DNA of 39,734 nt from Escherichia phage vB_EcoM_SHAK7854. The stretch lies in the sequence record OR594182; one strand, written 5' to 3'. A program made the translations under genes and the position numbers. Within the stretch, counting starts at the first letter, position 1, and the number at the start of each line of letters is the position of its first letter. Below the pieces are notes generated by a model. The model did not search any database, was not told where the DNA came from, and saw only the letters and a list, made by a program, of their open reading frames with translations. Positions 1-39,734 of the stretch are shown piece by piece.

Positions 1-1731
1 ATGACTGCACGTATGAAGTCAGACTTCGTGTTCTTCCTGTTCGTCCTGTGGAAAGCTCTGTCGCTCCCAGTCCCGACTCGCTGTCAGATTGACATGGCGA
101 AGAAACTATCGGCTGGGGACAACAGGCGCTTCATCCTACAGGCGTTCCGTGGTATAGGGAAGTCCTTCATTACGTGTGCCTTCGTTGTCTGGAAGCTATG
201 GAACAACCCAGACTTGAAGTTCATGATTGTGTCGGCCTCAAAGGAGCGAGCCGATGCTAACTCCATCTTCATCAAGCGAATCATCGACCTCATGCCTCAG
301 CTTCAGGAACTCAAACCTAAGCAGGGACAGCGAGATGCGGTTATTAGCTTCGACGTGGGACCTGCCAAGCCAGACCACTCACCTTCGGTTAAGTCCGTTG
401 GTATCACTGGTCAGTTGACTGGTAGTCGTGCTGACATCCTGATTGCCGATGACGTGGAGGTTCCGAACAACTCAGCGACTCAGGCTGCACGAGACCGTCT
501 ATCAGAGCTTGTGAAAGAGTTCGACGCTATCCTGAAGCCGGGAGGTACGATCATCTATCTGGGTACTCCTCAGAACGAGATGACCCTGTACCGTGAGCTG
601 GAAGGTCGTGGGTACACCACTACTATCTGGCCCGCTCGTTATCCACGCGACAGGAAGGACTGGCAGTCTTACGGCGACCGTCTGGCTCCTATGCTTCAGG
701 CAGAGCTGGAAGAGGACCCTGAGTCCTTCTACTGGCGTCCGACTGATGAAGTACGCTTCGATGATACGGACCTGAAGGAACGTGAGCTGTCCTACGGTAA
801 AGCTGGCTTCGCTCTACAGTTCATGCTTAACCCGAACCTGAGTGATGCCGAGAAGTACCCTCTTAAGCTCCGTGACCTTATCGTAGCCGACTTGGACCCA
901 GCGTCCAGCCCAATGGTCTACCAATGGTTGCCGAACCCTCAGAACAAGCGTGAGGACGTTCCTAACGTTGGACTCATGGGTGACTCGTACCACACGTATC
1001 AGACTGTAGGTTCTGCCTTCAGCTCATACACCCAGAAGATTCTGGTCATTGACCCTAGTGGTCGTGGTAAGGATGAAACTGGATATGCGGTACTGTACCA
1101 GCTCAACGGCTACATCTTCGCTATGGAAGTTGGTGGCATGCGTGGTGGTTATGAAGACTCTACGCTGGAAGCCTTGGCTAAGATTGGTCGTAAGTGGAGG
1201 GTAAACGAATACGTCATTGAGGGTAACTTCGGTGATGGTATGTACCTTGAGCTATTCAAGCCTGTATCGGCCCGTATCCATCCTGCGGCTGTAACTGAAG
1301 TGAAGAGTAAGGGTCAGAAAGAACTACGCATCTGTGACGTTCTGGAGCCTATCATGGGGTCTCACAGACTTATCGTTAACGCTGCTGCTATCGTCCAAGA
1401 CTACCAGACAGCCTCTGACAAGGATGGTGTTCGTAACCCTATCTACTCTCTATTCTATCAGATGACACGTATCTCTCGTGAGCGTGGAGCCTTGGCACAC
1501 GATGACCGACTTGATGCGCTGGCTATCGGTGTACAGTTCTTCGTTGAGTCGATGGCTAAGGATGCCAACAAAGGCGAACGTGAAGTCACTGAGGAATGGC
1601 TGGAGGAACAGATGGAGAACCCACGGAAAGGCTTCGAGTCCATCCACACTGAGTTCTGGGACAATGGGGTCCGGGTAACTCACGATACGGACGACGAGCT
1701 TGGACTAGGGTCATACGTTACGTTCCACTAG
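1..1731 (+). CDS. DNA packaging terminase large subunit (T7 gp19 family); 5-prime partial at window start, N-terminus supplied by 39702..39734 if the molecule is circular
   Basis: 576-aa ORF, collinear with T7 gp19 from about residue 12 ([55 protein letters not shown]). Confidence 0.93.
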
Positions 1732-1825
1732 CTGAATGAATAACTATAGGTGAAAGCTGCATGAATAAGCAGTTAGTAACCTATAGTTACTACCAGTCTA
1801 ACATACTGTTTTACAAGGAGTTTGG

Positions 1826-1848
1826 ACTTAACTATCACTATAGGGAAG
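1826..1848 (+). promoter_or_regulatory. phage RNAP promoter (phiOR-like, downstream of gene 19)
   Basis: ACTTAACTATCACTATAGGGAAG; core CACTATAGGGA identical to T7 class III -8..+3. Confidence 0.7.
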
Positions 1849-2028
1849 ACCCCCGGTTACTTATAGTATTACTGTAGTGAATATACATATGCAGACTTTA
1901 TGCAAGGCCTTAGGAGGCAGACTCCGAGTTCTTACCTAAGTCTTGCACCGATGGAAGGAGGGTGATATTAATCATAATCCCTCCAATACAGATAGTCACC
2001 GACCATAGATACAGGAGGTATGTAGCAT

Positions 2029-2187
2029 ATGGCAAAGACCAAAGCTGTACTTAAAGCTCTGGCGACCAATCGAGCTACATACAGGTTTCTTGCTGCTGTT
2101 CTACTTGCTGCTGGCGCTACTGCTGGAAGTCAGTGGGTCGGGTGGGTCGAGACTCTCGTATGTTCTCTGGTCTCTCAGTGTAATTAA
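2029..2187 (+). CDS. hypothetical small hydrophobic protein (52 aa) in the gene 19.5 position
   Basis: ATG with AGGAGG 10 nt upstream; below the ORF-track size cutoff; no homology recognised. Confidence 0.3.
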   Translation: MAKTKAVLKALATNRATYRFLAAVLLAAGATAGSQWVGWVETLVCSLVSQCN

Positions 2188-2344
2188 CGCCGTAATGGTA
2201 ACAATCAACGAAAGCAAGACCTAAGGTCAGTTCATAGCTGACGCTACTCTACTGACCTTAGCTACTGTAGTCAAGGACTTTAGGTAACACCTTAATAGAA
2301 GCTCACTTAGGGTCATCCTACTTATTGGTCTATCCTAGTGTCGC

Positions 2345-2390
2345 CTGACCTACGGTCCTTGACCTACAGTGGCTGTGGCCTACAGTAGTG
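2345..2390. repeat. short ACCTAC(A/G)GT direct repeats on the left flank of the terminal repeat
   Basis: three copies of ACCTACAGT-like motif; analogous to the CCTAAAG arrays next to the T7 terminal repeat. Confidence 0.55.
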
Positions 2391-2423
2391 ACGATGAGTT
2401 TTGGACCAAAAGTTTGAGACCAC

Positions 2424-2606
2424 ATCTCACACTTCAAGAACCTCAAGTCTCCCCATAGGCCTCTTTCAGTCCAGACCAAAGGCCCTACCCCAGTCTATCA
2501 TAAGGTTGGACCGATGGTCAAGACTTCAGGTCAACGATAGGCTGAGGCTATGGCTTAGGGAAGGACGATAGGTTGGGACTATTGGTCTGCCTCTGAGTCC
2601 CTATCT
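2424..2606. repeat. direct terminal repeat, copy 1 (183 bp; right genome end)
   Basis: exact tandem duplicate of 2607..2789; begins ATCTCACAC and ends GTCCCTATCT, resembling the T7 terminal repeat termini. Confidence 0.8.
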
Positions 2607-2789
2607 ATCTCACACTTCAAGAACCTCAAGTCTCCCCATAGGCCTCTTTCAGTCCAGACCAAAGGCCCTACCCCAGTCTATCATAAGGTTGGACCGATGG
2701 TCAAGACTTCAGGTCAACGATAGGCTGAGGCTATGGCTTAGGGAAGGACGATAGGTTGGGACTATTGGTCTGCCTCTGAGTCCCTATCT
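2607..2789. repeat. direct terminal repeat, copy 2 (183 bp; left genome end)
   Basis: identical to 2424..2606 by direct reading. Confidence 0.8.
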
Positions 2790-2814
2790 GTATAGTGATA
2801 TAGTATAACATTAC

Positions 2815-2940
2815 GTCCTACACCTACAGTCTAACTAACCTACAGTCATTGACTCCTGCTGTACCTACAGTCACCGACCATCGGTAAAGCCATTACCTAC
2901 AGTCAAAGACCTACAGTCAAAGACCTACAGTCTAACGACA
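2815..2940. repeat. array of about six ACCTACAGTC short direct repeats on the right flank of the terminal repeat
   Basis: CCTACAGTC recurs at about 2823, 2838, 2863, 2895, 2910, 2925. Confidence 0.6.
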
Positions 2941-3043
2941 CAAAGCTATAGACTTAAGGTCTAATACATGTTAGTCAAAGACTATATCCTCTTAGTCACT
3001 ATGGGCCGACGATAGCTTAATCAATATTATTTAAGATTACCTA

Positions 3044-3072
3044 TTGACTACAGGTCCAGACTATGGCTTAAT
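3044..3072 (+). promoter_or_regulatory. candidate host sigma70 early promoter (T7 A1-like position)
   Basis: TTGACT, 17-nt spacer, CTTAAT; surrounding sequence resembles the T7 A1 region. Confidence 0.4.
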
Positions 3073-3184
3073 AGCTTCCGTCAACACGACACGGCAACAA
3101 CCGGATAGTGAAGACGCCGGGTCATCCCGGTTAAGTAGACAGCCTGATAAGTCATACGAACAACAGGCAGATGACAGAAAGTAG

Positions 3185-3214
3185 TTGACAAGATGTACCG
3201 ACTTAAAGTAGTAT
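3185..3214 (+). promoter_or_regulatory. candidate host sigma70 early promoter (T7 A2/A3-like)
   Basis: TTGACA, 18-nt spacer, TAGTAT, followed by GTACCACAT as at T7 A3. Confidence 0.5.
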
Positions 3215-3341
3215 GTACCACATCAACACGAAACAACGGTGACGACCAACACTGAAACGGTCTACCTGAAGTCCTCTGACTGAAGGGAATGCTCTTTAAC
3301 AATCTGGATAAACTCTTAATGTGCGCCGACAGTGATTAACT

Positions 3342-3390
3342 ACAGGGTCTTTGAGTCTACATCTGAAGGCCCTGACTGATAGCCACTAAC
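3342..3390 (+). repeat. early intergenic hairpin element type A, copy 1 (candidate RNase III site)
   Basis: GTGATTAACTACAGG...CCTGACTGATAG element with internal inverted repeat; precedes ORF 3398. Confidence 0.5.
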
Positions 3391-3397
3391 TTAACGG

Positions 3398-3652
3398 ATG
3401 GACACTATGAAACACTTAAGCACAATCACTAATCGCAATGAAGTATTCGTGAACACTAAAGGTTATGCGTGGATTCAGCTTAAAGAGATGAGAGGAGCGC
3501 GTCACCGTGTGGTAGTTCGCAAGGTATCAAGCAAGCCGTTCAGCAACTACAGCGTAGATACTATGCGTATAGACAACGAGACTTACCTGATAGACTCGCA
3601 GATAACCGTGCGTCCTACAGCGGGCATCTCAGCTCCTTATTTCGCTAACTGA
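3398..3652 (+). CDS. hypothetical early protein (84 aa)
   Basis: first ORF of the early region, downstream of the candidate host promoters; no homology recognised. Confidence 0.55.
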   Translation: MDTMKHLSTITNRNEVFVNTKGYAWIQLKEMRGARHRVVVRKVSSKPFSNYSVDTMRIDNETYLIDSQITVRPTAGISAPYFAN

Positions 3653-3654
3653 GG

Positions 3655-3705
3655 GTGATTAACTACAGGTCGTTAGACTGATAGCGGCCTGACTGATAGT
3701 CACTA
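3655..3705 (+). repeat. early intergenic hairpin element type A, copy 2
   Basis: GTGATTAACTACAGGTCGTTAGACTGATAGCGGCCTGACTGATAGTCACTA; CAGGTC/GGCCTG stem. Confidence 0.55.
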
Positions 3706-3725
3706 GCAACCTAAGAGGATTCATT

Positions 3726-4004
3726 ATGAGACTGAACAAAGCTACAGCAGAAGCCTTTCGCAAGGAGCTTGAATCAAGATTATTGTGTGGAGTGGCGGAA
3801 GGAGCCGCTCGATATAAAGAGAATGGTCTAACGTTCAAGCGCTTTATGTGGGATTGCTATCACGGAGTGGGCCATAAAAAGTCGCAGGAAATAATCACCA
3901 GCAACAATGCGGAAGTGCAAGTGATAGGAGGATACATGGCTAACGTGAAGGATTCACACATAGAGACAATGCTTAAGAATGCACTTAAAGATGTAGCCTA
4001 CTAG
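3726..4004 (+). CDS. hypothetical early protein (92 aa)
   Basis: ORF with AGAGGA RBS 7 nt upstream. Confidence 0.6.
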   Translation: MRLNKATAEAFRKELESRLLCGVAEGAARYKENGLTFKRFMWDCYHGVGHKKSQEIITSNNAEVQVIGGYMANVKDSHIETMLKNALKDVAY

Positions 4005-4054
4005 TGATTAACTACAGGTCGTTAGACTGATAGCGGCCTGACTGATAGTCACTA
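4004..4054 (+). repeat. early intergenic hairpin element type A, copy 3
   Basis: identical to copy 2 over about 50 bp. Confidence 0.55.
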
Positions 4055-4084
4055 ACACATAATTAACTTTGAGAGGATATAACT

Positions 4085-4588
4085 ATGGAACGTAATGCTA
4101 ACGCATACTATGAGCTGCTGGCTGCAACCGTTGAGGCATTTATCGAGCGTATTCAGTACGACCACCTGACTCAAGATGATGACTACAGCGATGCGCTGCA
4201 TGAGGTCGTAGACGGTCAGGTTCCACACTATTACCACGAGATTTTTACGGTGATGGCTGCTGATGGTATAGACCACGAGTTCGAAGACTCTGGGCTGATG
4301 CCTGAAACCAAGGACGTAACGCGTATCCTACAAGCTCGCATCTATGAGGCGCTTTATAACGATGTGTCTAATAGCTTGGATGTAGTCTGGTTTGAGGATG
4401 AAGAGGCAGAAGAAGAGGATGAATATTGGGTAGTTGACGCTAAAACAGGCGCAATAATTGTGCAAGCTGTAGCTCTTGAGGTCGCTACTGCATGTGCCAA
4501 TGTTAACTATGCGGCAGGTCGCCACCTGAAGGTGGAAGACATCAATGATAACGTAGTGTTCGACCCTGCGGCTGAGGACTGCGAGTGA
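4085..4588 (+). CDS. ocr: Ocr-like DNA-mimic anti-restriction protein (T7 gp0.3 homolog) with about 50-aa C-terminal extension
   Basis: [43 protein letters not shown] matches T7 Ocr; acidic tail present; 167 aa versus 117 aa in T7. Confidence 0.85.
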
Positions 4589-4733
4589 TGGTAACTTATG
4601 GCCTCTGCCAGCACCACGTCACTAACGCCCGGCTTATGGTCAAGACCGGGCAGTTAGACCACGATTGGGCTATGCGTCTCTTGAAAGTGGTCTACAGGAG
4701 ACGCAAGCGTATACACGACAGTTTACACGCTAA

Positions 4734-4782
4734 GTGACAGACTACAGGTCATCAATGCTGGTGGCCTGACTGATAGTCATTA
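4734..4782 (+). repeat. early intergenic hairpin element type A, copy 4
   Basis: GTGACAGACTACAGGTCATCAATGCTGGTGGCCTGACTGATAGTCATTAAC. Confidence 0.5.
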
Positions 4783-4800
4783 ACAACTGAGAGGGAAGAT

Positions 4801-5028
4801 ATGAACACAATCACTGGTGCCATAACCAAAGGTTTTCGAGCAATTTTCGGTGAAACGCAAGAAGTATGCACCAATCATAAATTCGTACTTTCTTGCGTAG
4901 CAGGTGACGAGTTTGACGGGTTCGATAAACTGGTGGTTTGCGACCATTGCGGACAAGAGGCTATCCAACACTCAAACGGTAAATTTGAATTAATAGACGA
5001 TAGCCTTACAGAAGGAGACGGCGAGTAA
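4801..5028 (+). CDS. hypothetical early protein (75 aa) with four cysteines and acidic C-terminus
   Basis: GAGAGGGAAG RBS; C-x8-C...C-x2-C spacing suggests a small zinc-binding fold. Confidence 0.55.
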   Translation: MNTITGAITKGFRAIFGETQEVCTNHKFVLSCVAGDEFDGFDKLVVCDHCGQEAIQHSNGKFELIDDSLTEGDGE

Positions 5029-5092
5029 CCTAAATAAGCAGGAGAGAACCAAATCATAGCTTGACCATAACACTGACGTGATGGTACTGAGT

Positions 5093-5135
5093 GATAGACG
5101 AGAGGTCATCGACTGATAGGTGGCCTCAAAGATTA
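5093..5135 (+). repeat. early intergenic hairpin element type A, divergent copy 5
   Basis: GAGGTCATCGACTGATAGGTGGCCTC retains the AGGTC/GGCCT stem. Confidence 0.4.
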
Positions 5136-5160
5136 CCACTTACATTGATAGGAGTTAACT

Positions 5161-5265
5161 ATGAGCACTGCAATCATCTGGACTATCTCAGGCTTCGTAG
5201 CGTGGGGAATGTTTACTCTAGTCTGCAAACTACCGGTCCTTACTCAACTGTTATGGGGCTTATGA
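5161..5265 (+). CDS. hypothetical small hydrophobic peptide (34 aa)
   Basis: GGAG RBS; MSTAIIWTISGFVAWGMFTLVCKLPVLTQLLWGL; stop overlaps next ATG (ATGA). Confidence 0.3.
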   Translation: MSTAIIWTISGFVAWGMFTLVCKLPVLTQLLWGL

Positions 5266-5465
5266 CTATGAGTATCGCACTATTGATAGCCATAGGCTAT
5301 GGACTTATCGCCTACGTGCTGGTGAGAGACATCAACAAGGCACGTAAAGTCTATAAATTCAACTATGTACGTATGGTCCGCTGGACTGTACGTCAACCTA
5401 ACGGACGATTCCTGCGCAATTTAGCGAACGTCTGGGATATAGCAACTCTTGGGAGCAAACTGTAA
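5262..5465 (+). CDS. hypothetical early membrane protein (68 aa)
   Basis: internal Met of ORF-track 5091..5465 chosen as start; N-terminal hydrophobic helix then basic tail. Confidence 0.4.
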   Translation: MTMSIALLIAIGYGLIAYVLVRDINKARKVYKFNYVRMVRWTVRQPNGRFLRNLANVWDIATLGSKL

Positions 5466-5791
5466 TGAACAAGTCATACGGGATTAATCTGGTACACTCT
5501 ATGGACGCAGAAATGAACATGTTAAGCCTACTGGCTACCGGGTATCGTCACGGAACGTCAAGTCACACCGCACGTCAACAGCAGGAGCGGGACCGTGTAC
5601 TACAGGCGCGACTCCGGGCAGAGGGCCATAAGTCCGAACTGATGTGTCTGGCGTATGGCGGACGACCGATCACTGACGATGGTAAACTTCTGGTATCAGG
5701 CTGGAAGGCGATAGACCAACGGTCAACCATCAAGCACACGACTCATGGTGACTTCAGTCATCTTCACGCTAACCCACTGATATGCAAGTGA
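5465..5791 (+). CDS. hypothetical early protein (108 aa)
   Basis: TAATG coupling to upstream ORF; occupies the T7 0.7 position but is far too short to be the kinase. Confidence 0.5.
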   Translation: MNKSYGINLVHSMDAEMNMLSLLATGYRHGTSSHTARQQQERDRVLQARLRAEGHKSELMCLAYGGRPITDDGKLLVSGWKAIDQRSTIKHTTHGDFSHLHANPLICK

Positions 5792-5796
5792 TTCTG

Positions 5797-5819
5797 ACTT
5801 AACTATCACTATAGGACTC
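5797..5819 (+). promoter_or_regulatory. phage RNAP promoter immediately upstream of the RNAP gene
   Basis: CTTAACTATCACTATAGGACTCA; +1 GGA. Confidence 0.6.
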
Positions 5820-5888
5820 AAGGTCTAAGACTCCAAGTGAAAGACCAAAGAGACTTTAAGTGAAAGACTAATAACAAGGACTTTAAGT

Positions 5889-8570
5889 ATGAGCGTCATC
5901 TCTATTGACAAACACGACTTCTCTGATGTGTCGAACGCCATTGAGCCGTTTAACCTGCTGGCTGACCACTACGGGCAAGACCTTGCAGTCAAACAGCTTC
6001 AGCTTGAGCATGAGGCCTACACTGAAGGTGAGCGACGTTTCATCAAGAACCTTGAGCGTCAGACCGAGCGAGGGGAACTGGCAGACAATCAGGTCGCCAA
6101 GCCTTTGATGCAGACTCTGGTTCCTAAGATTGCGCAAGCCGTCAAGGAGTGGCACGAAGGTCCAGACGGGAAGCTGTCAACCTCACGTCCGAGCGTAGCG
6201 TTCACCATGTTAAGCACTGAAGAGAAGGCCGTCAAGGACCGCTCTCTTCGCATCTCCTGCGAGTCTGCTGCGGTTATCATACTGAAGGTCATCCTCTCCA
6301 AGCTGGTCAAGCCTGAAGGTATACCGATTACACCGATGGCCTCCGCGATAGGTCGCACACTTGAGGATGAAATCCGATTCGGTCGCATTCGTGACAAGGA
6401 GAAGGAGCACTTCAAGAAGGCGATAGCTGATAACCTGAACAAGAGAGCCGGGGCATCATACAAGAAAGCCTACATGCAAGCGGTCGAGACATCCATGCTG
6501 GAGCAAGGCCAACTAGAAGATGCGTGGGGAACTTGGAGTCCGACCGAGGCTGTCCACGTTGGAATCAAGATGCTGGAGATTGTCATACAGTCAACACAAC
6601 TGGTCGAGCTTAAGCGTTACGGTGCTGGCAATGCAGCGGCTGACGTTGAGATGGTCCACCTGTCAGACTTCTGGGTCAAGAAGATGGCACAACGAGGATT
6701 CAGCCTTGCGGGTATCGCCCCAGTCTACCAGCCTTGCGTCGTTCCACCTAAGCCGTGGACTGGTGTCGTAGGTGGTGGGTACTGGGCCAAAGGTCGCAGA
6801 CCGTTACCATTGATTCGCTTAGGGTCTAAGTCTGCGGTAGCACGTTATGAAGACGTATACATGCCTGAAGTCTATGACGCTGTGAATATCATCCAGAATA
6901 CACCTTGGAAAGTGAACAAGAAGGTATTGGACGTGGTGAACAAGGTCGAGAAGCTGAACAACACGCCTATTGATGACATCCCTCAGATGGAACCGCTGAA
7001 GCCTGAGGACTATGCGGGTGAGACTGAAGAAGAACTCAAGGCATGGAAGAAGGCTGCTGCTGGTATCTATCGCCGCGAGAAGGCCAGACAGTCACGAAGA
7101 TTGTCACTGAGCTTTATCGTCAACCAAGCGAACAAGTTCTCTCAGTTCAAGGCCATCTGGTTCCCGTATAACATGGACTGGCGCGGTCGCGTCTACGCTG
7201 TGCCGATGTTCAACCCTCAGGGTAACGACATGCAAAAGGGTCTTCTGACTCTGGCAGTCGGTAAGCCTATTGGTGCTGATGGTTTCAAATGGCTGAAGGT
7301 CCACGGTGCAAACTGCGCGGGTGTCGATAAAGTCACCTTCGAGGAGCGTATCAAGTGGGTGGAAGATAACCACGACAACATCATGGCTGCTGCCAAGGCA
7401 CCGATGGATAGCATTGAGTGGTGGGGCAAGTTAGACTCTCCGTTCTGCTTCCTAGCGTTCTGCTTCGAGTATGCTGGCGTAATGCACCACGGCTTGTCTT
7501 ACTCCTGCTCGCTGCCGATAGCGTTCGATGGGTCCTGCTCTGGGATTCAGCACTTCAGCGCTATGCTTCGCGACCACATCGGTGGACATGCAGTAAACCT
7601 GACGCCATCCGGTAAGGTCCAAGACATCTACCGCATCGTGTCTGACCGCATTGAGGAGGAGCTTAAAGTCCTACTGGTTAACGGTACGGACAACGAGATG
7701 GTAACTCACGAGGACAAGAAAACTGGTGAGATTACCGAGCGTCTCAAGCTGGGGACACGAGAGCTTGCCCGTCAGTGGCTGACCTACGGTATGTCACGAA
7801 AGGTCACTAAGCGTTCGGTCATGACTCTGGCCTACGGGTCGAAAGAGTACGGCTTCGCAGACCAAGTTTACGAGGACATCGTGATGCCAGCGATTGACTC
7901 AGGGTCTGGCGCTATGTTCACTGAACCAAGCCAAGCATCTCGCTTCATGGCTAAGATGATTTGGGAAGCTGTGAGTGTGACCGTAGTTGCTGCGGTTGAC
8001 GCGATGAAATGGCTTCAGGGTGCTGCCAAGCTGCTTGCTGCTGAAGTGAAGGACAAGAAGACTGGAGAAATCCTGAAGCCTTGTCTTCCGGTACACTGGG
8101 TCACACCTGATGGTTTCCCTGTCTGGCAGGAATACCGCAAGAAGGACACCACTCGTCTGAACCTGATGTTCTTAGGGTCATTCAACCTTCAGCCTACCGT
8201 CAACAAAGGCACGAAGAAAGAGCTGGACAAGCACAAGCAGGAGTCAGGCATTAGCCCGAACTTCGTCCACTCACAAGATGGTAGCCACCTCCGCAAGACT
8301 GTAGTCCACACTCACCGAAAGTATGGCGTGATGTCATTCGCAGTGATTCACGATAGCTTCGGGACCATCCCGGCTGACGCTGAGTATCTGTTCCGTGGAG
8401 TCCGTGAGACGATGGTAGAGACTTACCGCGATAACGATGTGCTGCTTGACTTCTACGAGCAGTTTGAATACCAGCTTCATGAAAGTCAGCGCGACAAGTT
8501 GCCTGAGCTTCCGAAGAAAGGTAAACTAAATATCGAAGACATCTTGTCTTCAGACTTTGCATTCGCTTAA
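5889..8570 (+). CDS. single-subunit DNA-directed RNA polymerase (T7 gp1 family)
   Basis: 893 aa, collinear with T7 RNAP (PFNLLADHYG, WFPYNMDWRGRVYAV, SPFCFLAFCFEYAG, AFDGSCSGIQHFSAMLRD, HDSFGTIPADA, C-terminal FAFA). Confidence 0.97.
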   Translation: MSVISIDKHDFSDVSNAIEPFNLLADHYGQDLAVKQLQLEHEAYTEGERRFIKNLERQTERGELADNQVAKPLMQTLVPKIAQAVKEWHEGPDGKLSTSRPSVAFTMLSTEEKAVKDRSLRISCESAAVIILKVILSKLVKPEGIPITPMASAIGRTLEDEIRFGRIRDKEKEHFKKAIADNLNKRAGASYKKAYMQAVETSMLEQGQLEDAWGTWSPTEAVHVGIKMLEIVIQSTQLVELKRYGAGNAAADVEMVHLSDFWVKKMAQRGFSLAGIAPVYQPCVVPPKPWTGVVGGGYWAKGRRPLPLIRLGSKSAVARYEDVYMPEVYDAVNIIQNTPWKVNKKVLDVVNKVEKLNNTPIDDIPQMEPLKPEDYAGETEEELKAWKKAAAGIYRREKARQSRRLSLSFIVNQANKFSQFKAIWFPYNMDWRGRVYAVPMFNPQGNDMQKGLLTLAVGKPIGADGFKWLKVHGANCAGVDKVTFEERIKWVEDNHDNIMAAAKAPMDSIEWWGKLDSPFCFLAFCFEYAGVMHHGLSYSCSLPIAFDGSCSGIQHFSAMLRDHIGGHAVNLTPSGKVQDIYRIVSDRIEEELKVLLVNGTDNEMVTHEDKKTGEITERLKLGTRELARQWLTYGMSRKVTKRSVMTLAYGSKEYGFADQVYEDIVMPAIDSGSGAMFTEPSQASRFMAKMIWEAVSVTVVAAVDAMKWLQGAAKLLAAEVKDKKTGEILKPCLPVHWVTPDGFPVWQEYRKKDTTRLNLMFLGSFNLQPTVNKGTKKELDKHKQESGISPNFVHSQDGSHLRKTVVHTHRKYGVMSFAVIHDSFGTIPADAEYLFRGVRETMVETYRDNDVLLDFYEQFEYQLHESQRDKLPELPKKGKLNIEDILSSDFAFA

Positions 8571-10712: not shown

Positions 10713-10722
10713 CTAAACGTCA

Positions 10723-10760
10723 ACCCAGTGGTCTTCGGACTGCTGGGTTTCTTTGCTTTG
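10723..10760 (+). terminator. rho-independent early terminator (TE-like) after ligase
   Basis: CCCAGTGG-TCTTCGGA-CTGCTGGG stem-loop followed by TTTCTTTGCTTTG. Confidence 0.65.
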
Positions 10761-10795
10761 TGCTAGCAAGCTATCGTCTGGGCCACCAGTTAGAC

Positions 10796-10818
10796 CCTAA
10801 GCTATCACTATAGGACAA
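10796..10818 (+). promoter_or_regulatory. phage RNAP promoter
   Basis: CCTAAGCTATCACTATAGGACAA. Confidence 0.65.
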
Positions 10819-29731: not shown

Positions 29732-29742
29732 GAGGAGGACTA

Positions 29743-32025: not shown

Positions 32026-32029
32026 CATA

Positions 32030-35000
32030 ATGGCGACTCGTGGTATTCGCAATAACAATCCGGGTAACATCCGGGTAAGTAAGGACCAATGGGAAGGAAT
32101 GACTGGAGATGATGGCGCATTCGTCACCTTCGATAGTCCAGAGTCTGGCGTCCGAGCTTTAGGTAAAAACCTGCTGTCCTACGGTCGCCAAGGTTATGAT
32201 TCCATCGAGAAGATTATCAACAGATGGGCACCTCCTAACGAGAACGACACTAAGGCTTATATTGACTCAGTGGTGGCTGCAACTGGTATTCCAGCTACAC
32301 AGAGTCTCGACCTATCGGACCCTGACACCCTGTCTTCTCTGGCACAAGCTATCAGCTTCCATGAGACAGGCTCACGGTACGACCCTGAAGTCTATCAGAA
32401 GGGAGTCGCACGGGCACTCAACGGCATTAGCCCAAAGACTCCACCAGTAAGCGCTAACGTATTTGACGCACTCACGGAAGGACTCAAGGCTAAACCTAAA
32501 GTAGCTCTGGGTGAGAACCTTCCGACCGCTGCTGGTCTGAACATTGAGGGTCAAGCACCTGAATCTCCCAACGAATCGTTCGGTGAGATGTTCTATAAGG
32601 CTACTGGAGAGACCATGCAGGAGCAAGAGGACCGCTCTACGTGGTTCGGTTTCGGTGCGGCTACAGAAGCTGAAGTGAAGAACTCTATGGTCGGCGTGGC
32701 TATACGAGCTGGTCAGACTGAGGACTCACTGGATGTCATTGGCGATGTGTTCAACCCAACCAGATGGAACAACCATAAGTGGTCTCGTGAGGAGCTAGAC
32801 CAGATTCGTAACGCTGGGGTTTTGCCTCAGTATTACGGAGTCATTACTGGTGGATCTCCTCAGAACCTGACCGAGCTTATTAACTTGGCGCTTGAGAACC
32901 AGAAGTTGGACCAAGAGAAGGCCAAGGCTGGGACTGGTGCTCAACTGGCGGCTGGTGTGATTGGTGCTGGCGTGGACCCTCTGACCTACGTTCCTATTGC
33001 TGGGCAGGTAGGTAAAGGTGGTAAGCTAGTCAACAAGATGTTCACTGTGGCTGCTCAGTCTGGTGCTCTGGCTGGGGCATCCGAGATTGCTCGAACCTCA
33101 GTTGCTGGTGGGGACGCTCATGTTGCTGAAGCTATCCTTGGTGGTGCTCTCTTCGGTGGTGGCATGACTGCTATCGCTGATGGACTAGGTAGAGCCTTAG
33201 GTCGCAACACTAATGAGTTTGCTGGTCCAGCTACACGTTTGGAAGCTCGTGAGACCGCTCGTAACGTTGATGGTCAGGACCTGTCCCGTCTCCCTATTCA
33301 GGAAGGTGAGCAGACCTTTAGTCATCAAGGCGTTAAGTTCGCTGACGTTCCGAATGAGCCGGGAAGTGTACGATTAGAAGACGGTTCAATCCTGATTGGT
33401 GAGAACCCTCTGAACCCTAAGACACGTCAAGTCTTTGACGAAGTGATTGAGCCGGAACGTGCCGCTGCTGGTGTTAACCTTGGTGGACTTACCGAGATTG
33501 GCCTGAAGCTGCTTCGGTCTGAGAACCCTGAGATTCGTGGAGTAGCTGCTGACTTAGTGCGTTCACCTACTGGTATGCAGTCTGGGGCCTCAGGTAAAAT
33601 CGGGACAACAGCGTCAGACGTGTTCGAGAGACTTCGTGCTGTGGACCATCGGTTCTACAACGACATAGACGATGCGGTTACTGAGGCACTCAAGGATCCG
33701 TACTTCCAGACAGCATTCTGGCGAGACTCTGGCGCATTCCGTCAGGACATCTACCAGCGTGTGTCTATGGCTATTGAAGACGGAAGTGGGAACCTGAAGG
33801 CTGAACTGACTCCGGGAGAACTGAAAGTCTATGACCTACTGAAGAACCAGTTCGACGCCAAGCGTGAGATGATGGAGAACCCAGCGATGTTTGGTCGTCC
33901 AGACGCTCAGTCTATCTTTCCGGGTAGCCGCTTCAAGGGAACCTACGTCCCTCATGTGTATAGCAAACAGATGAAGGAGCTGTACATCAAGGAGCTTGGG
34001 AGTCCAGAGGCGTTGCAGGAGGCCATCAAGAAGTCATGGTTGACCAGCTATGCGTCTCGACCTGAAGTCAAGAAACGCGTGGACGAGGCACTTTTAGAGG
34101 CTGACCCTACGTTGACTCCAGAAGGACTTGCGGCTGCGGTCGATAAGTACGCCAACGATAAGGCTTATGGTATCTCTCACACCGAGCAGTTCGAGCGTTC
34201 ATCCGTAATGGAGGAGAACATCAACGGGCTGGTGGGTCTGGAGAACAACAGCTTCCTTGAGGCTCGTAACCTGTTCGATAGCGATATGTCAATCGTTCTT
34301 CCTAACGGTCAGACCTTCAGTGTCAACAACCTGCGTGAGTGGGACATGGACAAGATTGTCCCGGCCTACAACCGTCGAGTTAATGGTGATATTGCTATCA
34401 TGGCTGGTACAGGCAAGACCACGAAGGAAATGAAGGACTTAGTTGAGACCATGATGAACAAGGCTGGCGATGACGGAAAGTTGAAAGGTGAAGTATCTAC
34501 CTTACGTGACACCCTGAAGATTCTCACTGGTCGTGCTCGACGTGATGGTGCTGATGATGCGGCCTTCGCTACCGTGATGCGCACGATGACAGACCTATCG
34601 TTCTTCGCTAAGAATGCCTACATGGGTGTTCAGAACTTAACGGAGATTGGTGGTATGCTGGCTCGTGGTAACGTTCGTGCCCTGCTACACGGAGTACCGA
34701 TGTTCCGTGACCTAGCCTTCCGTAACAAGAAGGTCGGGGCCTCGGAGATTAAGGACCTGCATAATGTTATCTTCGGTAAAGAATTAGACGACTCAATCCG
34801 TCCGTCTAAACAGGATGTTATCGACCGTCTGCGATCTTACAGTGACCTTAGTCGTGGTACAGCTACAGCTCTGGGGACTGCTAAGTATTACACTGGTGAA
34901 CTTGTAGTACGCTCTCCGTTCACTAAAGTCCTCAACGGTACGACCAACTACCTGTTAGATGCTGGACGTCAAGGCTTCCTGTCTGACATAGTGGAGCATA

Positions 35001-35917
35001 GCCTGACTGGTAGTAAGCGTAAGTTCGATGACCGCTGGCTGAAGACCGCTGGTATATCTGACGAGCAGTGGAGTGGAATTAAGTCCCTAATCCGTGAGTC
35101 AGTGACTCGTGGGCCAGACGGGAAGTACACCATCAAGGATAAGAAGGCATTCAGTCAGGACCCAAGGGCTATGGACCTGTGGCGTATGGGTGACACCATC
35201 GCTGACGAGACGTTACTCCGGCCTCATAAGCTGTCAAACATGGACGCCAAGGCTTATGGTCCTCTCGCTAAGACTGTCCTTCAGTTTAAGAACTTCGTCA
35301 TCAAGTCTATCAATGGGAGAACCATGCGAACCTTCTATAACGCCACGAAGAACAACAGAGCGATTGACGCTGCACTGTCGACCGTGATGTCTATGGGTCT
35401 GGCTGGTATCTACTACATGGCTCAGGCGCATGTCAAGGCTTATGCTATGCAGGATGGTCGAGACCGTGACTACCTTAAGCAAGCTCTGGACCCAACGATG
35501 ATTGGCTATGCGGCCCTGTCCCGTAGTTCACATCTTGGTGGCCCACTTGGGGTAGCTAACATTCTGGGAGGCATCGCTGGATATGAGGACACTAAGATGC
35601 TCCGTTCGTCTATCCTACCTCGTTCTCCTACAGAGAAGCCTGAGCGTGCCATCGCGTATGGTGCAGCTACAAGTGACCCTGTGATGAATGTTGTTGGTAA
35701 CTTCTTGGAGCAGGTTCCAGCTTTCGGATATGCTGCTAACGTTGGCGCTTCGGCTTACAACTTGGCTGGCTACCTCAAGGCTGATACTCGTGTCAACGAG
35801 CGTGACTACATGACCGGGATGTATAATACGTTCCGTGAACTGGTTCCGAACGACCCCATTACCCAGAAGCTGCTGCTTGGAACGTTTGAGGAGCAAGGCA
35901 TCCACATCAAGGACTAA
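32030..35917 (+). CDS. internal virion protein C/D (T7 gp16 family) with divergent N-terminal domain
   Basis: 1295 aa; from about residue 200 collinear with T7 gp16 (RWNSHIWT-like, GGSPQNL, VRSPTGMQSGASGK, TYVPHVY, RPEVK, AYGISH, ENNSFLEARNLFDSD, RRVNGDIAIM, FFAKNAYMG, NGTTNYLLDA, RAMDLWR, NNRAIDAALS, DPTMIGYAALSRSS, LVPNDP). Confidence 0.93.
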   Translation: MATRGIRNNNPGNIRVSKDQWEGMTGDDGAFVTFDSPESGVRALGKNLLSYGRQGYDSIEKIINRWAPPNENDTKAYIDSVVAATGIPATQSLDLSDPDTLSSLAQAISFHETGSRYDPEVYQKGVARALNGISPKTPPVSANVFDALTEGLKAKPKVALGENLPTAAGLNIEGQAPESPNESFGEMFYKATGETMQEQEDRSTWFGFGAATEAEVKNSMVGVAIRAGQTEDSLDVIGDVFNPTRWNNHKWSREELDQIRNAGVLPQYYGVITGGSPQNLTELINLALENQKLDQEKAKAGTGAQLAAGVIGAGVDPLTYVPIAGQVGKGGKLVNKMFTVAAQSGALAGASEIARTSVAGGDAHVAEAILGGALFGGGMTAIADGLGRALGRNTNEFAGPATRLEARETARNVDGQDLSRLPIQEGEQTFSHQGVKFADVPNEPGSVRLEDGSILIGENPLNPKTRQVFDEVIEPERAAAGVNLGGLTEIGLKLLRSENPEIRGVAADLVRSPTGMQSGASGKIGTTASDVFERLRAVDHRFYNDIDDAVTEALKDPYFQTAFWRDSGAFRQDIYQRVSMAIEDGSGNLKAELTPGELKVYDLLKNQFDAKREMMENPAMFGRPDAQSIFPGSRFKGTYVPHVYSKQMKELYIKELGSPEALQEAIKKSWLTSYASRPEVKKRVDEALLEADPTLTPEGLAAAVDKYANDKAYGISHTEQFERSSVMEENINGLVGLENNSFLEARNLFDSDMSIVLPNGQTFSVNNLREWDMDKIVPAYNRRVNGDIAIMAGTGKTTKEMKDLVETMMNKAGDDGKLKGEVSTLRDTLKILTGRARRDGADDAAFATVMRTMTDLSFFAKNAYMGVQNLTEIGGMLARGNVRALLHGVPMFRDLAFRNKKVGASEIKDLHNVIFGKELDDSIRPSKQDVIDRLRSYSDLSRGTATALGTAKYYTGELVVRSPFTKVLNGTTNYLLDAGRQGFLSDIVEHSLTGSKRKFDDRWLKTAGISDEQWSGIKSLIRESVTRGPDGKYTIKDKKAFSQDPRAMDLWRMGDTIADETLLRPHKLSNMDAKAYGPLAKTVLQFKNFVIKSINGRTMRTFYNATKNNRAIDAALSTVMSMGLAGIYYMAQAHVKAYAMQDGRDRDYLKQALDPTMIGYAALSRSSHLGGPLGVANILGGIAGYEDTKMLRSSILPRSPTEKPERAIAYGAATSDPVMNVVGNFLEQVPAFGYAANVGASAYNLAGYLKADTRVNERDYMTGMYNTFRELVPNDPITQKLLLGTFEEQGIHIKD

Positions 35918-35935
35918 ACTATCACTATAGGAAAC
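35913..35935 (+). promoter_or_regulatory. phage RNAP promoter (phi17-like)
   Basis: ACTAAACTATCACTATAGGAAAC; overlaps gp16 stop codon. Confidence 0.7.
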
Positions 35936-35981
35936 TGGAGGCGCTACCATAGGTCTCCATTTAAATCACAAAGGAGGCATA

Positions 35982-38513
35982 ATGTCCACGATTACACAAT
36001 TCCCTTCAGGAACCACTCAGTACAGGATTGAGTTCGACTACCTAGCCAGAACGTTTGTTGTTGTTACGCTGGTGAATAGCTCTAACCCTACCCTGAACCG
36101 TGTACTGGAAGTTGGTCGAGATTACCGATTCCTTAATCCAACGATGATTGAGATGTTGGTTGACCAATCAGGTTTCGACATAGTTCGTATTCACCGTCAG
36201 ACTGGAACTGACTTAGTGGTAGATTTCAGGAATGGCTCAGTGTTGACAGCTAGTGACCTGACCAATTCAGAGCTTCAGGCTATCCATATTGCAGAAGAAG
36301 GTCGAGACCAAACGGTTGACTTAGCGAAGGAATATGCCGATGCTGCTGGTAGCTCTGCTGGCAACGCTAAGGATAGCGAGGACGAAGCACGCCGAATCGC
36401 TGCGAGTATCAGGGAAGCTGGTCTAATTGGCTATATTACCCGTCGCTCCTTCGAGAAAGGCTACAACGTTACAACATGGAGCGAGGTCCTGCTATGGGAA
36501 GAGGATGGTGATTATTACCGCTGGGATGGTACGCTTCCAAAGAACGTTCCTGCTGGTTCAACTCCTGAAACTTCCGGTGGGATTGGATTAGGTGCGTGGG
36601 TTAGTGTTGGTGATGCTGCTTTAAGAAGTCAGATTTCAAACCCGGAAGGGGCAATACTCTACCCGGAATTGCAGATGGCAAGATGGCGTGATGAGGGTGA
36701 TGTTCGAGGCTGGGGTGCTAAAGGGGATGGTGTAACAGATAGTACGGAGAATATAGCTGCTTCACTAAATTCTCAAAAAGCTGTCGTAGCATCAGAAGGT
36801 GTATTCTCTAGTTCTGGTATTAATAGTAATTACTGTAACTTAGACGGTAGAGGTAGTGGCGTGCTAAGTCACCGTTCCAGTACAGGTAACTACTTAGTAT
36901 TTAACAATCCACGTACAGGTCGCTTAAGTAATATTACGGTAGAAAGTAATAAGGCGACTGATACAACTCAGGGACATCAGGTATCTCTTGCCGGTGGAAG
37001 TGATGTTACTGTAAGTGACGTTAACTTCTCAAACGTTAAAGGTACTGGTTTCAGTTTAATCGCATACCCTAATGATGCGCCACCTGATGGACTTATGATT
37101 AAAGGCATTCGAGGTAGCTATTCCGGATATGCTACTAATAAGGTAGCAGGATGCGTACTTGCTGACTCATCAGTTAACTCCCTCATAGATAACGTCATTG
37201 CTAAGAACTACCCTCAGTTCGGAGCAGTAGAGTTGAAAGGTACAGCCAGTTATAACATAGTAAGTAATGTTATAGGGGCAGATTGCCAGCATGTAACTTA
37301 CAACGGCACTGAAGGGCCAATAGCTCCTTCTAATAACCTTATCAAGGGGGTGATGGCTAATAACCCTAAGTATGCAGCGGTTGTTGCAGGCAAAGGAAGT
37401 ACGAACTTAATCTCAGACGTGCTCGTAGATTACTCAACTTCTGATGCTAGGCAGTCTCATGGTGTTACCGTAGAAGGGTCTGATAACGTCATAAATAATG
37501 TGCTTATGTCAGGATGTGATGGTACTAACTCTTTAGGACAAGGGCAGACTGCTGCAATTGCACGCTTTATAGGTACAGCTAATAACAACTATGCGTCTGT
37601 ATTTCCTAGCTACAGTGCTACAGGTGTTATTACTTTCGAATCCGGCTCTACCCGTAACTTCGTAGAGGTAAAGCACCCTGGCAGGAGGAACGACCTTCTC
37701 AGTTCTGCTAGTACTATTGACGGTGCAGCTACTATTGACGGCACTAATAATAGTAACGTAGTGCACGCACCCGCCTTAGGGCAGTACATAGGTAGTATGT
37801 CAGGTAGGTTCGAATGGCGGATTAAGTCCATGTCACTTCCGTCAGGCGTTCTTACCTCGGCTGATAAGTACAGAATGCTTGGGGATGGTGCTGTGTCATT
37901 AGCTGTAGGAGGGGGTACTTCTTCTCAAGTTCGCTTATTTACTTCTGATGGTACTTATCGGACAGTATCGCTCACCAACGGTAACGTGCGTCTTCCTACC
38001 AGTAGCACAGGTTATTTGCAGTTAGGTTCTGATGCAATGACACCAGATAGTACTAATACATACGCATTAGGTTCCGCAAGTAGAGCATGGTCTGGCGGTT
38101 TTACTCAATCAGCATTCACTGTTGTCTCAGATGCTAGGGATAAAACAGAGCCTCTTAATATCTCAGATGCTTTACTGGATGCTTGGTCTGAAGTTGACTT
38201 TGTGCAGTTTCAGTACTTGGACCGAATTGAGGAGAAGGGTGCAGACTCAGCTAGATGGCACTTCGGCATCATCGCTCAGCGAGCTAAGGAGGCATTCGAA
38301 CGTCACGGTATAGATGCACATCGCTATGGCTTCCTGTGCTTCGACAGTTGGGATGATGTATACGAGGAAGATGCCAATGGCTCTCGTAAACTGATTACAC
38401 CAGCAGGTTCCCGCTACGGTATTCGTTACGAGGAAGTACTGATATTAGAGGCTGCGTTGATGCGGCGTACTATTAAGCGTATGCAGGAAGCATTAGCTGT
38501 TATGTCTAAGTGA
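35982..38513 (+). CDS. tail fiber / tailspike (gp17): T7-like N-terminal adaptor, beta-helix-like central domain, C-terminal intramolecular chaperone-like domain
   Basis: N-terminus FDYLARTFVVVTL, DYRF, VDFRNGSVLTASDL, IAEEGRDQT matches T7 gp17; central region has short repeated beta-strand-like segments; C-terminus carries SDARDK Ser-Lys motif. Confidence 0.9.
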   Translation: MSTITQFPSGTTQYRIEFDYLARTFVVVTLVNSSNPTLNRVLEVGRDYRFLNPTMIEMLVDQSGFDIVRIHRQTGTDLVVDFRNGSVLTASDLTNSELQAIHIAEEGRDQTVDLAKEYADAAGSSAGNAKDSEDEARRIAASIREAGLIGYITRRSFEKGYNVTTWSEVLLWEEDGDYYRWDGTLPKNVPAGSTPETSGGIGLGAWVSVGDAALRSQISNPEGAILYPELQMARWRDEGDVRGWGAKGDGVTDSTENIAASLNSQKAVVASEGVFSSSGINSNYCNLDGRGSGVLSHRSSTGNYLVFNNPRTGRLSNITVESNKATDTTQGHQVSLAGGSDVTVSDVNFSNVKGTGFSLIAYPNDAPPDGLMIKGIRGSYSGYATNKVAGCVLADSSVNSLIDNVIAKNYPQFGAVELKGTASYNIVSNVIGADCQHVTYNGTEGPIAPSNNLIKGVMANNPKYAAVVAGKGSTNLISDVLVDYSTSDARQSHGVTVEGSDNVINNVLMSGCDGTNSLGQGQTAAIARFIGTANNNYASVFPSYSATGVITFESGSTRNFVEVKHPGRRNDLLSSASTIDGAATIDGTNNSNVVHAPALGQYIGSMSGRFEWRIKSMSLPSGVLTSADKYRMLGDGAVSLAVGGGTSSQVRLFTSDGTYRTVSLTNGNVRLPTSSTGYLQLGSDAMTPDSTNTYALGSASRAWSGGFTQSAFTVVSDARDKTEPLNISDALLDAWSEVDFVQFQYLDRIEEKGADSARWHFGIIAQRAKEAFERHGIDAHRYGFLCFDSWDDVYEEDANGSRKLITPAGSRYGIRYEEVLILEAALMRRTIKRMQEALAVMSK

Positions 38514-38614
38514 GTAATACTGGAAAGAATCGAAGCCAGACTTTCTGCTCTTGAACAGAAGTAATAAACAAACCATTTTGCCATTAAGTTGGTGGGTAGA
38601 TGTTAGAGGGTTGT

Positions 38615-38623
38615 GGGGGGGGG
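38615..38623. repeat. G9 homopolymer tract in the gene 17-17.5 intergenic region
   Basis: nine consecutive G read directly. Confidence 0.9.
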
Positions 38624-38699
38624 TAGAGACTAACTACACGCTAACCAACGTATGTAACAACTTTGGGTCACGGACGACCCGCTTTAAACTGGAGGTTTT

Positions 38700-38894
38700 A
38701 TGATTGAGTTAGACTTCAAGAATGAGGTCCTTAAAGCCTCTCCTATCGTCGGGACCGCTGCGGCTGATGGTGCCAGTCGGTTCTTCTTCGGACTTACACT
38801 GAACGAATGGTTCTACGTTGCAGCTATCGCGTACACCGTTGTCCAGATTGGTGTGCTAGTCTATAAAACGATTAAAGGAGGTGGTAAAACATGA
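38700..38894 (+). CDS. holin (T7 gp17.5 family)
   Basis: LDFKNEVLKASPIVGT, FFFGLTLNEWFYVAAIAYTVVQIG closely matches T7 gp17.5. Confidence 0.88.
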   Translation: MIELDFKNEVLKASPIVGTAAADGASRFFFGLTLNEWFYVAAIAYTVVQIGVLVYKTIKGGGKT

Positions 38895-39154
38895 CGCAGA
38901 TGGACTTAGAGAAGTTCCTCTTGATGCTTGATACTGAGCGTGCTCGACTTATGCTGCAAGACTTGCGGGATGACACTAAGCGTTCACCTCAGCTCTACAA
39001 CGCCATTGAGAAGCTGCTTGCTCGTCACAACTTTGTGTTAAGCAAGGTGTCTGTTGACGAGAAGACGCTGGCTGATATGGAGGCCCTGAACGCAGAGTAC
39101 GATAAGGTGCTTTCAGCGACTGAGGATAATGACACCGGGTATGGCGTTCAATAA
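38891..39154 (+). CDS. terminase small subunit (T7 gp18 family)
   Basis: LMLDTERA, RSPQLYNAIEKLLARH matches T7 gp18. Confidence 0.85.
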   Translation: MTQMDLEKFLLMLDTERARLMLQDLRDDTKRSPQLYNAIEKLLARHNFVLSKVSVDEKTLADMEALNAEYDKVLSATEDNDTGYGVQ

Positions 39155-39155
39155 G

Positions 39156-39205
39156 TGTTAGACTCAAGGTCATTACTGTATGTAGTGGCCTTTATGGTTA
39201 ACACT
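39156..39205 (+). repeat. hairpin element type B (candidate RNase III site, R18.5-like)
   Basis: GTGTTAGACTCAAGGTCATTACTGTATGTAGTGGCCTTTATGGTTAACAC. Confidence 0.5.
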
Positions 39206-39255
39206 AACTAGTGGAGGAGACTCTACGTGCAATCTGATAAACCGGGAGGGCAACT

Positions 39256-39705
39256 ATGCTCGAATTTTTAAAGAGAGCGGCTCCGTGGTTACTTGCAGCA
39301 GTGATGTTTGCTGGTGGCTACCACACCGCTAACAATAAGTGGGAGGCTAAGGTAAATGAAGAATACACCTCGAATCTTAAGGCATCGGAAGATACAAGGC
39401 TTGCTGTCCAAGCTGAAGTCAACAAAGTGTCCAAACGGTTTCAGGACGAAATGTCCTCGCTGGAAGGCAGCACTGATAGGATTATTGCTGATCTTCAGTC
39501 TGACAATAAGCGGTTGCGCATCCGAGTCAAACCAACGAGTGGAACCACGCAAAGTGACGGTCGATGCTTCATTGATGGTTACGCCGAACTTGACGAACGA
39601 GATGCTAAACGTCTTATCGCCATCGGAGTGAAAGGAGACAAGTGGATTAAGGCCCTTCAAGACACTGTGAGAGCCTTACAGCAAGAGAAGGAGGTGACGC
39701 ATTGA
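39256..39705 (+). CDS. Rz-like inner-membrane spanin (T7 gp18.5 family)
   Basis: MLEFL, LEGSTDRIIADLQSDNKRLRIRVK, ELDERDAKRL, WIKALQDTVRALQ matches T7 gp18.5. Confidence 0.88.
   Translation: MLEFLKRAAPWLLAAVMFAGGYHTANNKWEAKVNEEYTSNLKASEDTRLAVQAEVNKVSKRFQDEMSSLEGSTDRIIADLQSDNKRLRIRVKPTSGTTQSDGRCFIDGYAELDERDAKRLIAIGVKGDKWIKALQDTVRALQQEKEVTH
39356..39631 (+). CDS. Rz1-like outer-membrane lipoprotein spanin embedded in gp18.5 (+1 frame)
   Basis: PRWKAALIGLLLIFSLTISGCASES lipobox with Cys, then VDASLMVTPNLTNEMLNV. Confidence 0.7.
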   Translation: MKNTPRILRHRKIQGLLSKLKSTKCPNGFRTKCPRWKAALIGLLLIFSLTISGCASESNQRVEPRKVTVDASLMVTPNLTNEMLNVLSPSE

Positions 39706-39734
39706 GTAAAGACTTAGTGGCGCGTCAGGCGCTA
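39702..39734 (+). CDS. N-terminal fragment of terminase large subunit (TTG start), 3-prime partial at window end
   Basis: AAGGAGGTGA RBS then TTG; reading frame is contiguous with position 1. Confidence 0.5.
   Translation, partial: MSKDLVARQAL

Follow-up and report, generated by a model that had tools for sequence, protein, structure and literature searches.

Record ends within the terminase reading frame and tandem terminal repeats in a complete Kayfunavirus genome

The 39,734-nucleotide (nt) sequence of Escherichia phage vB_EcoM_SHAK7854 (record OR594182; the whole of this stretch is referred to as the window) opens inside the apparent reading frame of the large terminase gene (terL, gene 19), the first codons of which appear to lie at the opposite end of the record. 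It also contains, far from either end, two tandem copies of a terminal repeat. This arrangement raises the question of whether the permutation belongs to the virus or to its record. An initial annotation, made from the letters alone, read the window as a whole circularly permuted T7-like genome with a terminase gene split across the ends. The genome is indeed complete and rotated; however, it belongs to the genus Kayfunavirus, and the tandem repeats indicate that it is the record, and not the virus, that is permuted. The genome itself is ordinary, and the split terminase and internal tandem repeat are linearisation artefacts of the record.

The window ends in ...AAGGAGGTGACGCATTGAGTAAAGACTTAGTGGCGCGTCAGGCGCTA and starts with ATGACTGCACGT.... 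When positions 39702–39734 are joined to positions 1–1731, the resulting 1764 nt read as one uninterrupted frame, with 587 codons ahead of the stop. Translation across the junction thus agrees with the earlier statement that the last 33 nt, from a TTG located after AAGGAGGTGA, are in frame with position 1 and reconstruct a 587-residue terminase, compared with 586 residues in T7. The first 11 codons, from the TTG, occupy 39702–39734 on the plus strand, and the remaining 576 codons, from an internal ATG at position 1, occupy 1–1731 on the same strand. The product is a T7-type terminase. Residues 7–580 of the 586-residue T7 gp19 align at 65% identity from 39723 through the join to 1704 by tblastn, and the Pfam match is Terminase-T7_RNaseH-like (2e-37). 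The earlier placement of the window start in the middle of gene 19 is imprecise: the cut falls after codon 11 of 587, exactly on the in-frame ATG that is used as the terL start in the record of phage K1F (K1F 37030).

The join between 39734 and 1 is seamless, with nothing missing or added, because K1F is collinear across it, eight relatives contain it internally and an independent contig is identical through it. K1F runs through the join, with K1F 35812–37029 corresponding to window 38516–39734 and K1F 37030–39241 to window 1–2214. The same 72 nt around the join (27+33+12) are found internally in the eight relatives. An exact protein look-up of the tailspike led to Logan contig SRR30858912_81196, a 14,487-bp contig from an independent assembly of the public run SRR30858912. 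This contig matches window 28749–39734 running straight into 1–2606 at 100% identity, with 0 mismatches and 0 gaps. Neither a frame break nor extra sequence, the two signs against continuity named in the initial annotation, is present at the junction in this assembly. An exact look-up of the 576-residue form of TerL returned no match.

The window is the complete genome of a K1F-like member of Kayfunavirus (Autographiviridae, Studiervirinae), a lytic Escherichia podophage. The K1F genome (NC_007456) is collinear with the entire rotated window and covers 89.6% of it at 92.9% identity. Whole-genome alignment to T7 (NC_001604), which had been suggested earlier, covers only 35% of the window at 69.6% identity at the DNA level, and K1F is far closer. 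The product of coverage and identity for K1F (0.896 × 0.929 = ~0.83) is above the Kayfunavirus genus threshold. The genus criterion of the International Committee on Taxonomy of Viruses is a nucleotide similarity of at least 70% over the genome. Phage records gave 1039 matches for the first 20 kb and 729 for the second half of the window, and the top matches of both halves are Escherichia phages of the genus Kayfunavirus with 93–96% identity. The genome is mosaic in that the best relative of the first half differs from that of the second; the best relatives are LNA5 for one half (97% × 95.6%) and EcoIv10b_Midid for the other (98% × 94.6%). No single record in the collection up to August 2025 matches the whole window above ~96%. 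Given a species limit of <95% intergenomic similarity, the genome may represent a new species-level member of Kayfunavirus.

The "T7-like" label holds at the subfamily level only. Searched by tblastn, the complete set of 56 T7 proteins yields matches from classes I, II and III in T7 order on the plus strand after rotation, in keeping with the earlier statement that every T7 gene class is represented. The T7 proteins are matched in the ascending order 0.3, 1, 1.3, 1.6–2.5, 3, 3.5, 4, 5, 5.7, 6 and 6.5–19, and PHROG profiles add genes like 1.2, 4.3, 5.5 and 7. The single-subunit RNA polymerase, which consists of 893 residues, exhibits 62.6% identity to residues 1–883 of T7 gp1 by tblastn. A tRNA scan and an Rfam scan at the gathering threshold found none.

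The two 183-nt repeat copies, at 2424–2606 and 2607–2789, are 100% identical and lie head to tail without a spacer. The letters at the copy-to-copy junction are ...CCCTATCT|ATCTCACAC.... The first copy is the right-end repeat, with the right end of the source representation at 2606, and the second copy is the left-end repeat, with the left end at 2607 (ATCTCACAC...). The counterpart of the 183-nt unit in K1F is the direct terminal repeat of 178 bp, which lies in the same place and is 94% identical. The T7, K1F and HC12 (OL362275) records begin at TCTCACAG, which corresponds to window 2425/2608. The HC12 record ends in ...GACCACA (window 2424) and contains one repeat copy, as does each of the permuted relatives L003, L004, L005 and L011. 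The window reads GACCAC-(183)-(183)-GTATAG, compared with GACCAC-(183)-GTATAG, with one copy, in the SRR30858912 contig. This contig terminates at a genuine 54-nt repeat near 3655–3708, and its break at a genuine repeat argues that the reads contain no repeat-to-repeat junction.

The two tandem copies point to a finished linear sequence that was circularised and rotated. T7-family phages reportedly cut concatemers at fixed sites (Dunn and Studier 1983), and the permutation is assigned to the record because the ends of this family are fixed and the TerL is of the T7 type. It is highly probable that a finished linear Kayfunavirus genome was circularised in silico and re-opened at the terL ATG. 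The phage DNA would be linear in nature, with fixed ends and a direct terminal repeat of ~180 bp. It would be transcribed from left to right, first by the host RNA polymerase and then by the phage single-subunit polymerase from 11 phage promoters. Replication would proceed through head-to-tail concatemers, which the gp18/gp19 terminase would cut at fixed sites. The source of the record would be a finished linear sequence in which both 183-bp repeats are written out, 39,734 bp in all, of which 39,551 bp are unique. Software would then have closed this sequence into a circle and opened it again at the ATG taken by similarity-based tools for the start of terL, and the end-to-end joining would have placed both terminal repeats in tandem at 2424–2789. 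With terL starting 11 codons upstream at the TTG, the re-orientation would have moved those codons to the far end of the record. The chance of position 1 falling on that exact base is ~1 in 40,000. Current annotation pipelines offer, as a standard option, to re-orient phage genomes to the large terminase gene (PMC13338908), and we infer that such a tool made the window.

Gene 19 is split in the record only if the TTG start is accepted. The claim of a terminase split across the ends therefore stands with respect to the open frame over the join, and for the rest depends on the TTG, on which GenBank records disagree. The TTG at 39702 is likely to be the true terL start, judging from its sequence context and conservation. 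It overlaps the TGA stop of the Rz-like gene at 39256–39705 (aTTGA), and the 10-nt Shine–Dalgarno sequence AAGGAGGTGA at 39688–39697, which is near-perfect, ends 4 nt 5' of it, an ideal distance. Upstream of the TTG, the terL frame is open only as far as 39651. Eight relatives retain the AAGGAGG(T/C)GA-N4-TTG element together with the 11 codons, and one of them, L011, has a different upstream context. The distance from the start to the DFV motif is 18 residues for the window TTG and 7 for the window ATG, compared with 17 for the T7 GTG and 14–19 for the terL starts of other Studiervirinae. The 33-nt leader contains 3–5 changed sites among relatives, too few for a test of synonymous and non-synonymous changes.

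Initiation at the ATG at position 1 is an unlikely but sizeable alternative to the TTG start. It would give a 576-residue protein and no split, and the upstream 33 nt would be an untranslated spacer that is open by chance. The annotations themselves differ, as terL encodes 575 residues in the K1F record (start at 37030), 587 in HC12 (36887), 572 in ZG49 (37969) and 587 in MirsaeidiM_Esher2 (533). Three different terL starts are thus used across public Kayfunavirus records with essentially the same sequence. Two observations weigh against the TTG: in the K1F reference annotation, terL opens with the homologous ATG, which lies 30 nt past the Rz stop, and a Met codon is retained there in all close relatives, as well as in L003 and L004. 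The ATG could therefore be the true or an alternative start, and ATG is a stronger initiator than TTG. However, the 15 nt before the ATG (GCGCGTCAGGCGCTA) contain no purine-rich Shine–Dalgarno sequence, whereas such a sequence precedes the TTG by 4 nt. In T7 and other Studiervirinae, no Met stands in the window-ATG column, yet they share the A-R-Q/N-A-L residues upstream of it. Moreover, L003 and L004 carry an ATG in the column of the window TTG, and the 587-residue form is given by three independent annotations (HC12, MirsaeidiM_Esher2 and the Logan gene call). The TTG start is accordingly retained as the likely one.

With regard to the rotation of a finished linear genome, several points weigh against this account. 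The involvement of a re-orientation tool is suggested by position 1 falling on the ATG. Relative to the repeat boundaries of K1F and T7, the 183-nt unit has 1 extra nt on its left and 4–5 extra nt on its right, and the true physical ends may differ by a few bases from this unit. Furthermore, short-read assemblers can collapse tandem repeats, and would do so with a real tandem duplication under some conditions. Both copies are present and perfect in the window, and the 2 × 183-bp repeat might be physical, as an internal duplication or as a concatemer junction or packaged genome with two copies. This possibility is very improbable. The SRR30858912 contig runs unbranched from flank through one repeat copy to flank, yet breaks at the true 54-nt repeat, and the tandem copy is found in no relative. 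The concatemer junctions of T7 carry a single repeat. A physical tandem repeat, if true, would conflict with the T7 model, in which one junction copy is duplicated during packaging. Also very improbable is a biological origin of the permutation, with the window as the collapsed circular assembly of a genome that is terminally redundant or circularly permuted (headful-packaged): many public Kayfunavirus records do stand in arbitrary permutations, with matches starting at many record positions, but such an assembly has one repeat copy and the window has two perfect ones, the repeat sits exactly on the fixed terminal repeat of K1F, where the HC12 record also starts, the TerL is of the T7 type and not of the headful (P22/T4/SPP1) type, and position 1 lies exactly on a start codon.

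No public record with the same tandem repeat was found, and OR594184.1 and PQ464628.1 were examined as candidates. OR594184.1 seemed to have coordinates identical to those of the window, but its annotation shows a different orientation. Its match coordinates of 2150–3412 equal the window coordinates, and its own annotation at that place is RNA polymerase. These coordinates are probably a reporting quirk that arises when a match runs over the start point of a circular record. PQ464628.1 is long enough for two copies but contains no repeat of at least 60 nt. In ZG49 (KX669227.5), identical 401-nt ends (1–401 and 39891–40291) map to window 1935–2333. These ends lie upstream of the K1F-type terminal repeat and look like an assembly overlap and not a physical terminal repeat.

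The initial annotation also reported that recognisable homologs of gp0.7 and gp5.9 are absent, and this observation was corroborated. At E ≤ 10, gp0.7 gave no credible tblastn match, only a spurious one in the wrong place (E 0.39), and gp5.9 gave none either, its match (E 0.25) lying on the minus strand inside gene 1. Between genes 0.3 and 1 there are only open reading frames (ORFs) of ≤167 residues, each assigned to a PHROG different from the kinase PHROGs 2828, 15752 and 18305 that are matched by T7 gp0.7. These ORFs also lack a Pfam kinase match. Gene 5.7, which ends at 19030, abuts gene 6, which starts by ~19027, and there is therefore no slot for gene 5.9. The profile-level test for gp5.9 covered the scanned ORFs, a subset of the small ORFs, and a non-homologous RecBCD inhibitor could conceivably be encoded among the small unknown ORFs. 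K1F is likewise devoid of gp0.7 and gp5.9, as judged from its record and by tblastn, and has the same arrangement of genes 5.7 and 6. The absences are thus not peculiar to the window genome. In a tblastn search of gp0.7 against all phages, Kayfunavirus was not among the main groups; as many members are named "Escherichia phage", this result does not establish absence throughout the genus. The T7 proteins gp2.8, 3.8, 4.5, 4.7, 5.3, 6.3 and 7.7 were also undetected in the window. A gp1.2 homolog was not found by tblastn with the T7 protein, but is present at 9397–9648 by profile search. For small proteins, absence therefore means only that no recognisable homolog was found.

Eleven sites in the window match the phage promoter consensus CTWAACTATCACTATAGGRA, all on the plus strand, with 0 expected by chance. 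The site at 1827–1846 (+) is an exact match and occupies the position of T7 phiOR, which lies between genes 19 and 19.5 in the T7 record (NC_001604). The gene at the 19.5 position follows at 2029–2187 (+); it encodes 52 residues, matches phrog_2193 (1.5e-24) and is called in both HC12 and the Logan contig. Another site, at 5798–5817 (+), has 1 mismatch to the consensus and lies 70 nt upstream of gene 1, with a K1F counterpart at 2479. The promoter core ACTATCACTATAGG is common to K1F and the window, including the copy upstream of gene 1, whereas the T7 record lists no phage promoter upstream of that gene. As predicted from its position, the promoter at 5798–5817 would allow positive feedback on gene 1.

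On the right side of the terminal repeats, the region at 3044–3214 (+) is a probable host (sigma-70) early promoter region like T7 A1–A3. It contains the consensus-level element TTGACA-18-TAGTAT at 3185–3214, with 10 of 12 matches. In a sigma-70 promoter and terminator scan of 1700–6000, the count was not above that of shuffles. Three related intergenic hairpins with an internal loop, at 3331–3390, 3654–3708 and 4003–4057 (+; fold z of −2.0, −3.4 and −5.0, respectively), resemble T7 RNase III sites. Small early genes are located between them at 3398–3652 (phrog_10124) and 3726–4004 (phrog_9817), both on the plus strand. The hairpins at 3654–3708 and 4003–4057 show 98% identity over 54 nt and stand on either side of a 349-nt cassette that contains the ORF at 3726–4004. 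This cassette (extra segment 3709–4002) is present in the window and absent from K1F, which suggests that it may be gained or lost by recombination between the hairpin sites. The following gene 0.3 (4085–4588, +) encodes an Ocr-like anti-restriction protein with 64% identity to T7 gp0.3 (phrog_2568, 2e-54). The slot of T7 genes 0.4–0.7 is filled by small plus-strand genes, none of which encodes a kinase, at 4585–4737, 4801–5028, 5161–5265, 5262–5465 and 5465–5791 (PHROGs 32657, 36394, 2385 and 7066). Gene 1, encoding the single-subunit RNA polymerase, extends over 5889–8570 (+) and shows 63% identity to T7 gp1 over its full length.

The class II DNA-metabolism block, identified by tblastn and PHROGs, occupies 9397–19893, with all genes on the plus strand. 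It begins with the 1.2-like gene (9397–9648), which encodes 83 residues and matches the dGTPase-inhibitor PHROG (2.5e-40). The gene for ligase 1.3 (9648–10712) is separated from that for SSB 2.5 (12028–12729) by genes 1.6, 1.7, 1.8 and gp2. Endonuclease 3 (12729–13181), an unknown gene (13178–13672) and lysozyme 3.5 (13662–14120) come next, and a 4.3-like gene lies between lysozyme 3.5 and primase-helicase 4 (14429–16129). DNA polymerase 5 is encoded at 16333–18540, gene 5.7 at 18821–19030 and exonuclease 6 at about 19027–19893; a 5.5-like gene was identified by PHROG profile between genes 5 and 5.7. Gene 5 is uninterrupted in the window, whereas the K1F annotation gives it in two pieces, joined across an HNH endonuclease ORF. 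The region compared for gene 5 was window 18384–18796 versus K1F 14936–15953.

The class III structural block (20104–35917, +) was assigned by tblastn, Pfam and PHROGs and has promoters at 20021, 22860, 23840 and 28628. It starts with genes 6.5, 6.7, 7 and 7.3, which precede the genes for portal 8 (21295–22863), scaffold 9 (22917–23837) and capsid 10A (23964–25013), all on the plus strand. A −1 frame that overlaps the end of 10A is open at 24938–25276 (+), and the T7 10A/10B slippery heptamer G GTT TTC is retained immediately ahead of the 10A stop. This arrangement suggests a frameshifted minor capsid protein (10B-like) with a putative extension of ~95 residues. The extension is a separate coding sequence in HC12 and matches phrog_7473. 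Tail tube gene 11 (25442–26008, +) is followed by an ORF of 75 residues (26008–26235, +) that encodes an ASCH/DUF3850 domain (Pfam 1.9e-19; phrog_986, 2.8e-35), a PUA-like, RNA-binding domain. HC12 contains this ORF between tail tubular genes 11 and 12 (23169–23396), whereas K1F does not and its genes 11 and 12 abut. Gene 12 (26245–28602, +) and the genes for core proteins 13, 14, 15 and 16 (28689–35917, +) complete the block.

Gene 17 (35982–38513, +) encodes a tailspike with an N-terminal adaptor of the T7 type, a receptor-binding body and, at its C terminus, an S74 chaperone. The body is unrelated to the K1F endosialidase, and similarity to K1F ends after about 36740; the C-terminal Peptidase_S74 chaperone is present in both proteins. 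Over 36609–38510, the body shows 96–98.6% protein identity to several Kayfunavirus tailspikes and 91.5% to Vectrevirus tailspikes, which implies a probable horizontal exchange of the body module between the two genera. The remaining genes, all on the plus strand and identified by tblastn, encode holin 17.5 (38700–38894), small terminase 18 (38891–39154), Rz-like 18.5 (39256–39705) and the embedded Rz1-like 18.7 (about 39455–39619).

The biological weight of the window is small, as it adds another K1F-like coliphage of the sewage type, in which the tailspike has been swapped. The relevance lies in the record. Rotation of a finished linear genome with both terminal repeats creates a false tandem duplication, and when a similarity-defined ATG serves as the rotation point, the true 5' end of terL can be cut away. 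These artefacts are to be expected in scans of such windows for repeats or split genes.

Compared with known systems, the window genome shares with T7 the three-class organisation, one-strand coding and its own RNA polymerase (63% amino acid identity). The terminases are 65% identical (586 residues in T7 and 587 in the window), and a non-ATG terL start, which is GTG in T7, is likely to be common to both. At the end of gene 10A, both genomes carry the slippery site G GUU UUC, and a direct terminal repeat beginning with TCTCAC is a probable further feature in common. The window genome differs from T7 in the promoter consensus, in the tailspike that replaces the tail fibre and in the phage promoter before gene 1. 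K1F, the type species of Kayfunavirus, has the same gene order genome-wide, and its record is in the natural orientation. The sewage Kayfunavirus isolates HC12, LNA5, EcoIv10b_Midid and AN24P4 are 93–96% identical to the window over genome halves, and HC12 additionally shares the TTG terL start overlapping Rz (587 residues), the ASCH ORF and the 10B-frame ORF. The differences between the window and K1F are of the usual mosaic kind, and the organisation is otherwise that of K1F and Kayfunavirus.

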